A DNA stretch of 64,000 nt from assembly GCF_044324875.1 (NCBI RefSeq), contig NZ_CP172185.1; one strand, 5' to 3'. Below, piece after piece: positions 34,715 through 45,159 of this stretch; position 1 is the first letter of the stretch, and each line of letters begins with the position of its first letter. Source of the DNA: Escherichia coli. GTDB lineage: Bacteria > Pseudomonadota > Gammaproteobacteria > Enterobacterales > Enterobacteriaceae. Under the pieces are notes generated by a model. It was not told the origin of the DNA. It ran no database searches and saw only the letters and a program-made list of their open reading frames with translations. A program made the position numbers and the translations under genes.

Positions 34715-35377
34715 ATGGCTTATCGCGACCAACCTTTAGGTGAACTGGCGCTCTCTATTCCTCGCGCTTCGGCTCTGTTTCGTAAATATGATATGGATTA
34801 CTGCTGCGGCGGTAAGCAAACGCTGGCGCGTGCGGCGGCACGTAAAGAGCTGGATGTTGACGTCATTGAAGCTGAACTGGCAAAGCTTGCTGAACAACCG
34901 ATTGAGAAAGACTGGCGCAGCGCCCCGCTGGCTGAAATCATCGACCATATCATCGTGCGCTACCACGATCGCCACCGCGAGCAGCTGCCGGAGCTGATCC
35001 TGCAAGCGACTAAAGTCGAGCGCGTTCACGCCGACAAACCGAGCGTGCCAAAAGGGCTGACAAAATACCTGACCATGCTGCATGAAGAGCTTTCCAGCCA
35101 CATGATGAAAGAAGAGCAGATCCTCTTCCCGATGATCAAACAAGGCATGGGCAGCCAGGCGATGGGGCCAATCAGCGTAATGGAAAGCGAGCACGATGAA
35201 GCGGGCGAACTGCTGGAAGTGATCAAACACACTACCAATAACGTCACACCGCCGCCAGAAGCCTGCACCACCTGGAAAGCGATGTATAACGGCATTAATG
35301 AACTGATTGATGACCTGATGGAGCACATCAGCCTGGAAAATAATGTGCTGTTCCCACGCGCGCTGGCGGGTGAGTGA
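34715..35377 (+). CDS. ytfE: Iron-sulfur cluster repair di-iron protein (RIC / ScdA family)
   Basis: 220-aa [44 protein letters not shown]... with hemerythrin-like HxxxE motifs. Confidence 0.96.
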
Positions 35378-35385
35378 TTTGTTCG

Positions 35386-35418
35386 ATCAACGATCCTGAC
35401 ATGGGCAGGATCGTTGAT
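35386..35418. terminator. Bidirectional hairpin between convergent ytfE and downstream accessory gene (13-bp perfect stem ATCAACGATCCTG / CAGGATCGTTGAT, 7-nt loop)
   Basis: Inverted repeat read directly from sequence 9 bp after ytfE stop and 4 bp before the stop of ORF 35422..36906. Confidence 0.6.
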
Positions 35419-35421
35419 TAT

Positions 35422-36906
35422 TCAGTCATTCAGTGGAAATAATTCATTGTTGTAACTGGTGTACTCACCTTCAACGGTAAGCAAACTGCCGTTTTTATCA
35501 AGATGCGCCGCATCGAGTTGTCGAGTCTCATTACGCCGCTTCGCATCACGTACCAGTCCATCGCCTACGTAATAAATATAGTGGTCATCATGAGCAAAGG
35601 TATCTGATAATTGACCATTGGCGTATTTAAACCACGTCCATTGGCCTTTCAGTTCAAAATGCTCAACCGTGTCTTCATCAATAAAATACGTATAGCGATC
35701 GTCATGTGCTAAATAATTTAATGGTGTGCCATCGGGGCTTTTATACCACTGCCATTGCCCATTAATATCAAAAATAGTCACATCATCGCTCGCAATGAAA
35801 TAAACTTTATCCCCTACAATATTAACACCTTCCTGTAATTCTTGTTGCGGGTCTGGTAAATGAATGACCGACAGCGTTTTTTCGACCGCAGAAACATACT
35901 TCACCAGATAGAGCGAATCTTTATATTGCGCCACATTCTCCGTCAGCGGGCGAAAATATTCCGGATCAACATCAGGAATAGTCGCAACCCGGCAGTCATT
36001 AGCACGCCTGGAAGCATCACGCGTCAACCATGTTACTTTATCCCGCTGCAGGTCAAACGTACTCCGACAATTTTTACCGAACGCATAACGTTTCTCCCCG
36101 TCTTTATCGCGATAAATTAGCAGTGAACCGGCTATCCAGCGCACAATATGAAAGGTATCCGGATCGGCGTTGATGGCATCTCCATTCACAAAGACCTGTG
36201 ATTTAGTCCGCCAGATTGTATCCCAGGGTCCCGGATTACTTTTGCTTTGGCAGCTATTGGGGGAAAATAAAATAATTCGTCGGTCCCAGGATTTAACGCC
36301 AAGAATAGAATACCCTTGCGCACTGCCCAACCAGTGCCCCTGAAAGTAAATATTGTGACGATCTTTCAGCACATCCGCGGAATCACCTGAACCGCCGACT
36401 TGTTGCAACGAATCCATATCGACCTGCTTTTCGTCGCGATTATCATCCGTGCGTTCACCATCAAAATAGAGACTATCTTTATCGGCGGCAAAACGCCCCC
36501 ACGCGCGGAATGTTGCAACATCAACTTTCGGTGTTCCCGGCGGGTTCTGGACTATTTTCCCTGCCCATAAAATATGGCGGCCATCGGTTAACCAGTCGAA
36601 ACGCCAGCCGCCATTTGACCGATAGCCAGAGAAGGGAGCCACCCGCACAAAATCATTATTGATATCATCAGGTGAATCGTATTCACCATCAGTGCCGTTG
36701 GGTACGCGGCGAAGTTGTTTGAACTTTACCTGCGGCAAATGAATATCCGGAAAATCGATACCGTAACCGTCACTATCTTCAACGATATATTTTGTGCCTT
36801 GCCCCCACGGCTGGTAGTAAAACGCAGCATAAGGCACGCCGGAGCAGGCTATCGAAGCGGTTGAAAATAAAGCCAGTGCGAGACAAACGGGTTTAATTGG
36901 CAACAT
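35422..36906 (-). CDS. Secreted hypothetical protein with DKNYY-like repeats (paralog A), 494 aa
   Basis: Long ORF with AGGA RBS 9 nt upstream of ATG 36904-36906; N-terminal signal peptide MLPIKPVCLALALFSTASIAC; repeated D-K-x-x-Y-F/Y motifs (ADKDSLYFDG, KDRHNIYFQG, RDKDGEKRYAFG, YKDSLYLVKY, GDKVYFIASDD) and two C-terminal ~34-aa repeats (GQWQWYK...AHDDRYTYF / GQWTWFK...AHDDHYIYY). Family assignment is by motif eye-match only. Confidence 0.8.
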   Translation of the reverse strand: MLPIKPVCLALALFSTASIACSGVPYAAFYYQPWGQGTKYIVEDSDGYGIDFPDIHLPQVKFKQLRRVPNGTDGEYDSPDDINNDFVRVAPFSGYRSNGGWRFDWLTDGRHILWAGKIVQNPPGTPKVDVATFRAWGRFAADKDSLYFDGERTDDNRDEKQVDMDSLQQVGGSGDSADVLKDRHNIYFQGHWLGSAQGYSILGVKSWDRRIILFSPNSCQSKSNPGPWDTIWRTKSQVFVNGDAINADPDTFHIVRWIAGSLLIYRDKDGEKRYAFGKNCRSTFDLQRDKVTWLTRDASRRANDCRVATIPDVDPEYFRPLTENVAQYKDSLYLVKYVSAVEKTLSVIHLPDPQQELQEGVNIVGDKVYFIASDDVTIFDINGQWQWYKSPDGTPLNYLAHDDRYTYFIDEDTVEHFELKGQWTWFKYANGQLSDTFAHDDHYIYYVGDGLVRDAKRRNETRQLDAAHLDKNGSLLTVEGEYTSYNNELFPLND

Positions 36907-36939
36907 AGCATCATCCTGAAGCTGTTAGCGTGTAAGAGG

Positions 36940-38103
36940 TTATTTAAATAAGGGTTTCAGACCGCTCGGGGGTTGCTTCACCGTAGACCATTCTGCTGAA
37001 ATGGGGTTGTAACGCAGCCATTCAGTTTGCTCGTAGTGTTTTCCGTCGATTGTGGTTAATCCACTAAGTTCGTGACTGTAGAGTTGCCCGTCTGTAGTGA
37101 TATACATGTAGCCAGTTACCATGCTTTCCCTATCTAATAATTCAAAAACATCCTCTGGCTTGGGTGTTATCAGTTCACCTTCACCTAATGCATTGGTTTT
37201 AACCTTATAGAATTGATCTTTGTAATAGCCTACCGACCCGGTAAGTAAGGTAAAATATTCCGGATCAACTCCTTTAAGCGTTTCATAAACACAATCACTG
37301 CCCGCAGGCGTCGCTTCTTGTTTGAGCCTGGACACATTCTTCAAACCGATATTAAATAACGCACAACTGTGACCAATATCTTCCAACGTATAGTCATGCT
37401 CGCCGCTTTTATCGCGATAAACTAACCGTTCGCCAGGCATCCAGCGGATTATCTGAAAGGTTTTGCGATCGGCGGGCAGCGGCTTGCCATTAACAATCAC
37501 CTGCGAATTTGTCATTACAACAAATTGCAGGGATGAATCATGCCGCAGGATTTGAAACCCGTCAGCGCTGCCCAACCAGTGCCCCTTATGCCAAAGACTA
37601 TTTTTATCACGCAGTAAATTCCAGATGTCCGTCTCTTCAAGCGTTGACATATCCACCTGCTTATCACCGCTATTATCATCGGTACGCTGGCCGTCAAAAT
37701 AGATACTGCGTTTATCAGCAGCGAAAGCGCCGAATGCCTTAAAACTGGCGGCATCGACATTAGGTTCACCGGATGGATTTTTCAGGACTTTGCCTGCCCA
37801 AAGGACAGAACGTCCATCGGTGAGCCAGGTATGCTGGCAATCCCCCTCGTCATCACAGTCGAACTTATCGGGATTAAAATCGGAGAGCAGCCGGGTTTCT
37901 TGTTTATTGGCTAAATTGGCAATGCGCCAGAGGCGGGAAAAATTAACGTCTGGTAATTCGGAGAGGATCTCATCTTCTTTTCCCTTCTGTTCGGCAACGT
38001 AAACCGTGCCTTTTTCATGCTGGCGGTAATAAAAATCCGCGCCCCAGGAAGGTGAAATGGAGAGAGGTAATGCGGCGATTAATAACCAACTGCGCTTAAC
38101 CAT
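36940..38103 (-). CDS. Secreted hypothetical protein with DKNYY-like repeats (paralog B), ~387 aa
   Basis: ORF track 36940..38331; I place the start at ATG 38101-38103 where a signal peptide begins (MVKRSWLLIAALPLSISPSWGA), avoiding overlap with cycA; colinear with paralog A (WLTDGRSVLWAGKVLKNPSGEPNVDAASFKAFGAFAADKRSIYFDGQRTDDNSGDKQVDM vs WLTDGRHILWAGKIVQNPPGTPKVDVATFRAWGRFAADKDSLYFDGERTDDNRDEKQVDM). Confidence 0.75.
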   Translation of the reverse strand: MVKRSWLLIAALPLSISPSWGADFYYRQHEKGTVYVAEQKGKEDEILSELPDVNFSRLWRIANLANKQETRLLSDFNPDKFDCDDEGDCQHTWLTDGRSVLWAGKVLKNPSGEPNVDAASFKAFGAFAADKRSIYFDGQRTDDNSGDKQVDMSTLEETDIWNLLRDKNSLWHKGHWLGSADGFQILRHDSSLQFVVMTNSQVIVNGKPLPADRKTFQIIRWMPGERLVYRDKSGEHDYTLEDIGHSCALFNIGLKNVSRLKQEATPAGSDCVYETLKGVDPEYFTLLTGSVGYYKDQFYKVKTNALGEGELITPKPEDVFELLDRESMVTGYMYITTDGQLYSHELSGLTTIDGKHYEQTEWLRYNPISAEWSTVKQPPSGLKPLFK

Positions 38104-38185
38104 AGTGAACTCTGCAACGAGTGGCAAAGATTCACGGTAAGCTCGCGCCTGAGGGCTGTCTATGATGGTAGATATTTTTAAGAAT

Positions 38186-38217
38186 ATATAAAGACAAAGG
38201 CACCCGCAGGTGCCTTT
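38186..38217 (-). terminator. cycA terminator hairpin (9-bp stem AAAGGCACC / GGTGCCTTT)
   Basis: Inverted repeat 20-40 bp downstream of cycA stop on minus strand followed by T-rich tract (TTTGTCTTTATATATTCTT). Confidence 0.55.
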
Positions 38218-38236
38218 CAGAGCTATAAACGCAGCA

Positions 38237-39640
38237 TTACTTCGCCATGCGTTTTTTACCAATAAACAACCAGCCCAGCCCCAGAGCGATAAACCACAGC
38301 GGGGTAACCAGCAGCGCCTGGCGGGTATCATCTTCCAGTGTCAGCAGCACGACCACGAACACAAAGAATGCCATACATACCCAGCACATCAGCTTGCCGA
38401 GCGGCATCTTGTAGATCGACTTATCATGCAGGTGTGGACGCTGTTTGCGGTACACCAGGTACGAGCAAAGGATAATCGTCCAGACGAACATAAACAGAAT
38501 CGCGGAAACGGTTGTAATCATCGTGAACGCGCCAATCACGCTGGGATTCACATACAACATCACCACGCCGCCGAGCAGACAGATACAAGAGAAGGTCAGC
38601 CCTTTCGCGGGTACTGCGCGCTTAGAGAGTTTAGCGAACGCTTTCGGTGCCACACCTTCCTGCGCCAGACCAAACAGCATACGGCTGGTAGAGAAGACAC
38701 CGCTGTTAGCGGAAGACGCCGCAGAGGTCAGCACCACAAAGTTGATCACGCTGGCAGCCGCAGGCAAACCTACCAACACAAACAGCTCAACGAACGGGCT
38801 TTTCTCCGGGACTACCGAACTCCACGGCGTCACGGACATAATCACAATCAACGCGAAGACGTAGAACATAATGATACGGATCGGAATGGAGTTAATCGCG
38901 CGTGGCAGTGATTTCTCTGGATCTTTGGTTTCCGCAGCTGTTGTACCTACCAGCTCAATCCCCACGAAAGCGAAAACCGCTATCTGGAATCCGGCAAAGA
39001 AGCCACTTAAACCTTTCGGGAACCAGCCGCCGTCATTCCACAAATGCGCGAATGACGCTTCTACACCGGTCGGTGACTGAAAGTGCATCGCCACCATGAC
39101 CAGGCCGACGACTATCAGCGACACAATGGCGACGATTTTGATCATCGCAAACCAGAACTCCATCTCACCGAACATTTTCACGGTGGCGAGGTTGAGCGTC
39201 AGCAGCAGCACTATCACCGCCAGCGAGGCGACCCAGTCGGAGAGATCGGGGAACCAGAACTGAGCATAAGCCGTGATCGCCACCACGTCTGCCATACCGG
39301 TTACAACCCAGCAGAACCAGTAAGTCCAGCCGGTGAAATATCCTGCCCACGGCCCGAGTAAATCGGAAGCGAAGTCACTAAAAGATTTGTATTCCAGATT
39401 CGAAAGCAGCAATTCCCCCATTGCCCGCATCACGAAAAAGAGCATAAAACCAATGATCATATAAACAAAAATGATCGACGGCCCGGCAAGGCTAATCGTT
39501 TTGCCGGACCCCATAAACAACCCCGTACCAATGGCACCGCCAATGGCAATAAGCTGAATATGTCGGTTTGTGAGATTGCGCCGTAGCGACTGTTCAGCCG
39601 GAGCCTGATCATCGGCAACGACTTTTACCTGATCTACCAT
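38237..39640 (-). CDS. cycA: D-serine/D-alanine/glycine:H+ symporter (APC family)
   Basis: 467-aa ORF MVDQVKVVADDQAPAEQSLRRNLTNRHIQLIAIGGAIGTGLFMGSG... amino-acid permease signature. Confidence 0.96.
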   Translation of the reverse strand: MVDQVKVVADDQAPAEQSLRRNLTNRHIQLIAIGGAIGTGLFMGSGKTISLAGPSIIFVYMIIGFMLFFVMRAMGELLLSNLEYKSFSDFASDLLGPWAGYFTGWTYWFCWVVTGMADVVAITAYAQFWFPDLSDWVASLAVIVLLLTLNLATVKMFGEMEFWFAMIKIVAIVSLIVVGLVMVAMHFQSPTGVEASFAHLWNDGGWFPKGLSGFFAGFQIAVFAFVGIELVGTTAAETKDPEKSLPRAINSIPIRIIMFYVFALIVIMSVTPWSSVVPEKSPFVELFVLVGLPAAASVINFVVLTSAASSANSGVFSTSRMLFGLAQEGVAPKAFAKLSKRAVPAKGLTFSCICLLGGVVMLYVNPSVIGAFTMITTVSAILFMFVWTIILCSYLVYRKQRPHLHDKSIYKMPLGKLMCWVCMAFFVFVVVLLTLEDDTRQALLVTPLWFIALGLGWLFIGKKRMAK

Positions 39641-43832: not shown

Positions 43833-44627
43833 ATGACATTACCAACCACTATTTATTCATTTCCTGCATATTCACCCCGTTTTTCGTCCACCGACAAACC
43901 AGTAAAATTAAAATTTCATCAATACGCACGCGCTACATTACTTTCAAATCGTGGAAGAGATCATAATTGCGATGGCAGACATACTGTTGAGATCCACAAA
44001 CTAGATCTCTCAGACTGGCAAGCATTCAATAAACTAGCGATGGCGTGTAATGCTTACGATGGAATAACAATGAATGGTGATAATTCTTTTGGATGGAACC
44101 ATGAGGCTACATTAGATAATATTCACGCCCAGAAATACAATAAAGCTTACGCGGGTGCGAGGTTAACCGCAGAACTGAAATATTTATTGCAAGATGTCGA
44201 ATCCTTCGAACCCAACAGTAAATACACAATACACGAGGTTGTTTTGGGTCCAGGTTATGGTACTCCAGACTATACCGGCCAAACGATAGGATACGTTGTA
44301 ACCCTTCCTGCCCAAATGCCTAATTGCTGGTCATCTGAACTACCAACAATCGATCTTTATATCGACCAACTTCGCACTGTTACAGGCGTTTCTAATGCCC
44401 TCGGATTCATCATTGCTGCATTGCTAAACGCGTATTCTGATTTACCCCATGATTTGAAAATTGGTCTGCGTTCCTTATCAAGTTCAGCAGCAATCTACTC
44501 GGGTTTGGGTTTCGAGCGAGTGCCGCAGGACCGAGACATAAGGTGCGATCATATGCATCTAACGCCAGCAAACCATCCTGAATTATGGACACAAGAGAAT
44601 GGTGAATGGATCTACTTACGAAACTAA
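43833..44627 (+). CDS. yjfZ: Uncharacterized protein YjfZ
   Basis: 264-aa ORF MTLPTTIYSFPAYSPRFSSTDKPVKLKFHQYARATLLSNRGRDHNCDGRH...; AT-rich upstream region. Confidence 0.88.
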   Translation: MTLPTTIYSFPAYSPRFSSTDKPVKLKFHQYARATLLSNRGRDHNCDGRHTVEIHKLDLSDWQAFNKLAMACNAYDGITMNGDNSFGWNHEATLDNIHAQKYNKAYAGARLTAELKYLLQDVESFEPNSKYTIHEVVLGPGYGTPDYTGQTIGYVVTLPAQMPNCWSSELPTIDLYIDQLRTVTGVSNALGFIIAALLNAYSDLPHDLKIGLRSLSSSAAIYSGLGFERVPQDRDIRCDHMHLTPANHPELWTQENGEWIYLRN

Positions 44628-44651
44628 TACCTGACGAAAAATAGAAAGCAA

Positions 44652-44677
44652 AACGCCGACCACTGGTCGGCGTTTTT
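44652..44677. terminator. Bidirectional rho-independent terminator between yjfZ and rplI
   Basis: Hairpin AACGCCGACC-ACT-GGTCGGCGTT flanked by A-run upstream and T-run downstream. Confidence 0.7.

Positions 44678-44697: not shown

Positions 44698-45159
<462 letters not shown>

Follow-up and report, generated by a model that had tools for sequence, protein, structure and literature searches.

A conserved stem-loop between the convergent ytfE and DKNYY-family genes of Escherichia coli as a probable bidirectional 3′-end element

Between the convergent stop codons of ytfE and a DKNYY-family gene (DK1) of E. coli lies a perfect 13-bp inverted repeat that, as judged by comparison across genomes, is real, evolutionarily maintained and structurally conserved. 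Our window, the whole 64,000-nt stretch of E. coli DNA analysed in this work, carries qorB, ytfF, ytfE, two DKNYY-family genes and cycA in that order. We propose that the repeat probably forms an RNA stem-loop that would define and protect the 3′ ends of both mRNAs and limit read-through into the opposing gene, making it a U-tract-poor, bidirectional terminator element. As such, the ytfE/DK1 hairpin is an unremarkable example of a class already known.

The inverted repeat and its neighbouring genes

The ytfE gene, which encodes an iron-sulfur cluster repair protein, occupies positions 34715 to 35377 on the plus strand, as annotated in identical RefSeq loci. Convergent to it on the minus strand is DK1 (35422–36906, 494 aa), and the 44-nt gap between the two genes holds the inverted repeat. 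Its left arm (35386–35398, ATCAACGATCCTG) contains a 10-nt core, AACGATCCTG, that is common to a locus from another genus (L116); its loop (35399–35405) reads ACATGGG and differs between lineages in both sequence and length (7–11 nt); and its right arm (35406–35418) is CAGGATCGTTGAT. The plus strand from 35370 to 35424 thus reads gtgagTGAtttgttcg-ATCAACGATCCTG-ACATGGG-CAGGATCGTTGAT-tat-TCA. The ytfE stop codon, TGA, is at 35375–35377, leaving 8 nt before the repeat, which begins at the ninth base; the DK1 stop codon (tca on the plus strand) is at 35422–35424, with 3 nt between it and the repeat.

All 13 positions of the two arms form Watson-Crick pairs. A scan of the whole 64-kb window for perfect inverted repeats (arms ≥13 bp, loops 3–10 nt) found the ytfE/DK1 repeat alone, against 0.01 expected (mean of 100 dinucleotide shuffles). 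The 33-mer has RNA folding energies of -19.4 kcal/mol on the plus strand and -18.8 kcal/mol on the minus strand (z ~ -6), with none of 200 shuffles as stable. Because 6 of the 13 pairs are G-C, the stem is stable without being G+C-rich. These results uphold the perfect 13-bp repeat of a preliminary description of this DNA, which had named the folding energy as a check; its placement of the repeat 9 bp after the ytfE stop and 4 bp before the DKNYY stop is correct as to position, the intervening nucleotides numbering 8 and 3.

The convergent gene is DKNYY-like, as that description had it: DK1 and its paralogue DK2, a second DKNYY-family gene of 387 aa (36940–38103, minus strand), both match the Pfam family DKNYY (PF13644), with scores of 32.3 and 28.0 bits (cut-off 25). 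Both window proteins have signal-peptide-like N-termini. For DK2, a mechanical ORF of 463 aa (36940–38331, minus strand) crosses the cycA terminator upstream into cycA; the start annotated in RefSeq, MVKRSW... at 38103, gives the 387-aa protein with its signal-peptide-like N-terminus. That terminator-like hairpin, AAAGGCACC-TGCG-GGTGCCTTT followed by GTCTTTATAT (38196–38217, minus strand), marks the far end of the variable segment that begins after ytfE. Relatives of DK1 form a narrow family of 43 clusters, and a literature search found no paper on DKNYY proteins in Escherichia or on a ytfE/cycA terminator. NCBIfam and PADLOC searches with DK1, DK2 and a 355-aa protein from another haplotype of this locus returned no matches, so that nothing identifies the segment as a defence island. 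The 355-aa protein (WP_001345317.1; L001 4625–5692, minus strand), whose gene stands in for most of the DKNYY cassette in haplotype B, has no Pfam match either.

Two further features of the repeat were noted. The minimum-free-energy fold of the plus strand adds an outer helix, 35371–35379 with 35425–35433, in which the ytfE stop-codon region (UGAGUGAUU) pairs with the complement of the DK1 stop region (AGUCAUUCA); since it uses G-U pairs, this helix is limited to the plus strand. In addition, three GATC (Dam) sites fall within 28 nt (35385–35388, 35392–35395 and 35409–35412), two of them placed symmetrically in the stem arms. These two are absent from the corresponding stems of haplotype B and Escherichia albertii and hence are not a conserved feature.

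Haplotypes and boundaries of the ytfE-cycA interval

We surveyed 5426 complete E. coli genomes, 5416 of which matched the ytfE query, and found that three haplotypes (exemplified by loci L001, L003 and L004) cover 5414 of these 5416. In type A, the K-12-like arrangement (4786 genomes), ytfE and cycA are 44 nt apart. Type B (~360 genomes) comprises ytfE, a hairpin, a remnant of the DK1 3′ end, the unrelated 355-aa gene, the N-terminal part of DK2 and cycA, with no intact DK1. Type C, that of the window, has two intact DKNYY genes (268 genomes, in which the window repeat occurs at 269 places). The intact DKNYY segment is accordingly present in 5% of E. coli genomes, or 12% with haplotype B added.

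The variable segment extends from the ytfE stop to the cycA stop (35378–38236). K-12-type genomes have 44 nt in its stead, and the slot after their ytfE stop holds another hairpin, GCTGGATGGC-ATTGC-GCCATCCAGC, with a TTTT tail in the cycA sense. Alignment of the window with type A ends at 35375–35378, at the ytfE stop codon, which places the inverted repeat 8 nt inside the variable segment rather than at its ytfE-side boundary, where it had been thought to lie. BLAST homology restarts at 38250, suggesting a right-hand boundary inside cycA; we rejected this as an artefact of alignment, because homology extends through the CycA tails (KKRMANLRK in the DKNYY-bearing contig L111, KKRAAELRK in K-12 and KKRMAK in the window, with a 3-codon deletion), which puts the right boundary at the cycA stop codon. 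The segment therefore runs from stop codon to stop codon, a replacement of the whole intergenic region with no finer junction to resolve, and on these alignments the apparent junction is a conserved coding region meeting a hypervariable intergenic one. CycA is 467 aa long in the Escherichia insert haplotypes and 470 aa in K-12 and L111 (window 38237–38260), such that an in-frame 3-codon deletion at its extreme C-terminus accompanies the insert haplotype.

A perfect palindrome at the ytfE-proximal end of a segment found in this minority of genomes and absent elsewhere might be read as a recombination scar, a possibility raised in the preliminary description, or as an attachment site, from or for insertion of the DKNYY cassette. 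The evidence makes this the least likely of the readings that we weighed. The homology breakpoint is the ytfE stop codon, off the repeat, and no arm or trace of the repeat survives in the ytfE-cycA interval of genomes without the insert (type A). No direct or inverted repeat joins the two ends of the segment, a search for such links having found short chance-level matches only; the repeat is present in one copy per genome; and the segment encodes just two DKNYY-family proteins, with no integrase or transposase.

A resemblance between the two ends of the segment could be counted in favour of a scar. The arms of the cycA-side terminator (AAGGCACCCG / CAGGTGCCTT on the plus strand, 38196–38217) weakly resemble the ytfE-side arms of the type found in haplotype B and E. 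albertii (AACGCACCTG / CAGGTGCGTT; L001 4390–4420), agreeing at 8/10 and 9/10 positions, a match with a chance of ~1e-3 for a random 11-mer in a comparison made post hoc. The likeness is weaker in E. albertii, and the divergent loci L116, L111 and L119 do not show it, so the idea that the cycA terminator and the ytfE hairpin are copies of one ancestral hairpin finds no support in any of these. By these sequences, the likeness is probably chance.

The distribution of the cassette itself also speaks against a scar. At least four genus-level lineages have a DK2-DK1 cassette between cycA and ytfE, the identity of DK1 being 58–80%, whereas most Enterobacteriaceae lack it. Given this spread, and DK1 divergence down to 58–62%, any insertion must be ancient. 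Among 80 species loci in a ytfE scan (a set without E. fergusonii, E. marmotae, E. ruysiae and Salmonella), cycA lies immediately next to ytfE and convergent with it wherever the sequence extends far enough, except in E. albertii, and the intergenic regions of the outgroups are mostly 37–150 nt long. From this sampling, direct adjacency of ytfE and cycA is the common state in the family.

Conservation of the stem across lineages

The stem is retained in relatives in which little around it can be aligned. The type B hairpin is ATCAACGCACCTG-GTTTACACAAT-CAGGTGCGTTTTC, with the same ytfE 3′ flank as the window, and that of the E. albertii type strain is ATCAACGCACCTG-ACTGACACGC-CAGGTGCGTTAAT. Both carry AACGCACCTG...CAGGTGCGTT where the window has AACGATCCTG...CAGGATCGTT, so that two adjacent pairs are swapped on both sides (A-T to C-G and T-A to A-T) with pairing kept. 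At L116, the hairpin AATAAACGATCCTG-AACGTATAGA-CAGGATCGTTTATT has a 14-bp perfect stem whose 10-bp core is identical to that of the window, a further compensated pair (C-G to A-T), and a loop and flanks unrelated to those of the window. The ytfE and cycA genes of L116 are ~85–86% identical to the window in nucleotides, the level of Citrobacter or Enterobacter, indicating a different genus; its DK1 is 58% identical in protein. Overall, the loops ACATGGG, ACTGACACGC, GTTTACACAAT and AACGTATAGA (7–11 nt) and the flanks are unalignable between lineages while the arms are kept. A comparison with E. albertii NBRC 107761 (L010 5001–5660), whose YtfE is 100% identical to that of the window in protein and 95% in nucleotides and whose adjacent DK1 is 79% identical, illustrates that, on the sequences compared, the DKNYY genes change much faster than their neighbours.

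Across 9 distinct stem variants, 91% of cells form standard pairs, compared with 23–53% when the partners are slid, and RNAalifold recovers the same helix independently. Changes on both sides occur in 3 of the 14 pairs and 7 pairs are invariant. The number of covarying pairs is not above chance (3, versus 1.9 in shuffles; 107 of 500 shuffles reach 3). We therefore treat covariation as supportive and not decisive, since the events are few: three pairs, two of them adjacent and possibly changed in a single event. On sequence grounds, the stronger argument is the identity of 10+10 nt across a genus-level distance amid unalignable loops and flanks. A metagenome scan with a pattern joining the ytfE end to the left arm returned 21 contigs, among which no stem variants appeared beyond those of the genomes.

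Template switching within quasi-palindromes is known from E. coli mutagenesis to copy one arm onto the other and so to mimic compensatory change. The perfection of the repeat could have arisen in this way in a palindrome without selected function. The adjacency of the two swapped pairs, the covariation counts and the growth of the C-type stem from 10 to 13 perfect pairs (right flank TTGAT, versus TTTTC or TTAAT), as arm-to-arm copying predicts, are all in keeping with such an origin. Nevertheless, we judge it unlikely. The 10+10-nt core is identical even though ytfE and cycA have diverged by ~15% and loops and flanks cannot be aligned, for which mutational bias alone is insufficient and purifying selection is needed; moreover, other lineages fill the same slot with unrelated hairpins.

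The same invariant core might instead point to the nucleotides themselves. With AACGATCCTG/CAGGATCGTT identical across a genus distance while its surroundings are scrambled, the hairpin could conceivably be recognised in a sequence-specific manner and so do more than form a generic transcript end, whether as a target of an RNA-binding protein, as an RNase site, or as an antisense-overlap element through which expression of ytfE, a nitrosative-stress gene, would be coupled to that of the secreted DKNYY proteins; we regard this as improbable. A DNA-level palindromic operator for a dimeric regulator of ytfE or the DKNYY genes, akin to the protein-binding site raised in the preliminary description, would likewise account for a perfect palindrome with a 10-bp half-site core kept over such a distance. 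This we hold to be very unlikely: the spacing of the half-sites changes between lineages (7, 10, 10 and 11 nt), which a dimer bound rigidly to DNA would not be expected to tolerate, and B and E. albertii have two positions of the half-site swapped symmetrically. In addition, the site lies between two stop codons and distant from either promoter, loci L111 and L119 carry a wholly different GC-rich palindrome in the same gene arrangement, and the segment has no regulator gene.

L111 and L119 belong, with L116, to three contigs bearing divergent DK1 relatives (62, 59 and 58% identity for L111, L119 and L116, respectively) in the same cycA-DK2-DK1 / ytfE arrangement. The unrelated GC-rich hairpins of L111 and L119 (-23.7 and -19.6 kcal/mol) occupy gaps of 38–39 nt between the stops. 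Insert-less loci short enough to be folded (≤160 nt) all have stable hairpins or REP-like units, again of unrelated sequence. Hence the slot after the ytfE stop holds some hairpin in every arrangement examined. Pseudocitrobacter corydidari and Klebsiella spallanzanii (L113, L114) have tandem arrays of 2–4 DKNYY paralogues at unrelated loci. The window hairpin was not found at these DKNYY loci, indicating that it belongs to the ytfE/DK1 convergent junction and is not carried with the DKNYY genes.

The K-12-type hairpin (L003 4381–4405) resembles one in Trabulsiella, GCCCGGTGGC-GCAAT-GCCACCGGGC (L034, L037), with the loop reverse-complemented. In sequence, the difference looks like a hairpin-loop inversion, and the resemblance suggests that the K-12-type intergenic region is old.

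The hairpin as a probable element of two mRNA 3′ ends

The preliminary description took the repeat to be a probable bidirectional terminator, and the comparative evidence fits that part of the claim; the hairpin is not, however, a canonical intrinsic terminator, lacking a U-tract in the DKNYY sense and having a weak one in the ytfE sense. A stable stem-loop is present, but the 7–8-nt U-rich tract that should follow the stem is not, and a terminator consensus scan did not call the hairpin. The downstream tail is TATTCAGT on the plus strand (4 U of 8, interrupted) and CGAACAAA on the minus strand (no U); a U-containing tail thus occurs on the plus strand only, as TATTCAG in the window and TTTTCAAATGCTTT in B. 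With a d'Aubenton-Carafa-type score, in our own implementation with ViennaRNA energies and an approximate threshold, the window hairpin reaches -3.3 on the plus strand (borderline) and -34.4 on the minus strand (clearly negative), and the variants range from -3 to -4 and from -34 to -36, respectively. The type A hairpin scores +33 in the cycA sense.

Searches for other functional elements at the site were negative. Rfam 15 gave no match at gathering score for the hairpin, the nearest being at chance level (MIR161, 16 bits versus 90; sR3, 14 versus 41). A promoter-like match (35414–35443, plus strand, 9/12) overlaps the right arm; we dismissed it, as shuffled sequence yields at least as many such matches as this region does.

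The asymmetry of the two tails raises the question of whether the hairpin serves ytfE alone, as a weak intrinsic terminator or a 3′-end protector, its closeness to the DK1 stop being incidental. Spacing is in keeping with this: the hairpin starts a constant 8 nt from the ytfE stop in haplotype B, haplotype C and E. albertii alike (9 nt in L116), whereas its distance to the DK1 stop varies, from 3 nt in the window and 11 nt in other C-type variants to 19 and ~27 nt, the last value being for E. albertii and coming from our reading of an extended reading frame. Haplotype B keeps the hairpin without an intact DK1, and the U-containing tail and the better score are found on the plus strand alone. 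Furthermore, one stem variant, GF4-3, keeps pairing on the ytfE-sense strand only, through a U-G pair, a sequence change that hints that only one strand may matter. We nonetheless consider a ytfE-only role doubtful, if possible. Pairing in the major stem variants is strictly Watson-Crick whichever strand is read, and in E. albertii it is the minus-strand fold that is the more stable (-21.1 versus -15.7 kcal/mol). Moreover, no second terminator-like structure separates DK1 from ytfE, which leaves the hairpin, or a point past it, as the place where DK1 transcripts must end.

That all major stem variants are Watson-Crick is what we would expect of a bidirectional element, in which both strands must fold. 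In the one-directional cycA terminator, unlike the ytfE/DK1 stem, these haplotypes include a G-U intermediate: the terminator stem is AAGGCACC/GGTGCCTT in the window, AAGGCACC/GGTGTCTT (G-U) in type B and GF4-3, and AAGACACC/GGTGTCTT in the E. albertii type, a stepwise compensatory series of G-C, G-U and A-U (38196–38217, minus strand; equivalents in L001, L009 and L096).

Two described classes of element resemble what we observe. Stable stem-loops without U-tracts define the steady-state 3′ ends of Rho-dependent E. coli transcripts, which end just downstream of them, and shield the transcripts from PNPase and RNase II (Dar and Sorek 2018, PMC6061677). The ytfE/DK1 hairpin is likewise a stable stem-loop with no downstream U-tract, just past the end of a coding region; it differs in that the downstream sequence on each strand is antisense to a coding gene. 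Hairpin-encoding elements between convergent E. coli genes have been described as bidirectional terminators unlike intrinsic ones, which pause polymerases from either side and fix where collisions drive bidirectional termination (Wang et al. 2022, bioRxiv 10.1101/2022.10.23.513370); that study builds on SEnd-seq (Ju et al. 2019, as cited in 10.1101/2022.10.23.513370). The SEnd-seq elements share with ours a short convergent gap, a hairpin on both strands and a departure from the canonical intrinsic form; the ytfE/DK1 element sits in an unusually tight gap, with stops 8 and 3 nt from the stem.

Within the window, a textbook bidirectional intrinsic terminator, AAAACGCCGACC-ACT-GGTCGGCGTTTT (44650–44676), lies between convergent ORFs at 43833–44627 (plus strand) and 44698–45147 (minus strand). 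It too is a perfect palindromic stem between convergent genes, but is G+C-rich and flanked by A4 and T4-5, giving U-tails both ways, and the ytfE/DK1 hairpin has neither of these features. The K-12-type ytfE/cycA hairpin occupies the equivalent slot directly 3′ of the ytfE stop and is of similar stability (-19 to -20.5 kcal/mol); it differs in its unrelated sequence and in its TTTT tail (score +33) in the cycA sense, and it serves cycA. In the insert haplotype, unlike the K-12 type, cycA has its own separate terminator, that at 38196–38217. Finally, REP/BIME elements are also extragenic palindromes at gene 3′ ends. We rejected membership in these or another dispersed palindromic family, for which many copies per genome are expected: the ytfE/DK1 repeat is single-copy, lacks a REP consensus and has no further arm copies in the 64-kb window at up to 2 mismatches. 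Genuine REP-like units do occur in the same intergenic region of other species.

Taken as a bidirectional 3′-end element, the ytfE/DK1 hairpin would work in three steps. The nascent hairpin would pause RNA polymerase arriving from either side; collisions between polymerases, head-on or trailing, or Rho acting farther downstream, could then complete termination; and 3′-5′ exonucleases would trim the transcripts back to the hairpin, leaving them stabilised. A terminating ribosome, by its footprint, should occlude part of a stem when the stop codon is close. With stops only 8 and 3 nt away, co-transcriptional formation of the hairpin may be impaired.

The finding matters little beyond correct annotation of this locus. 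It does add a further comparative case in which a short convergent gap stays occupied by a stem-loop despite wholesale sequence replacement, and it indicates that Watson-Crick pairing of both strands can persist in such stems from one genus to another. The case also cautions, for genome scans, that a palindrome beside an indel need not be a signature of recombination.
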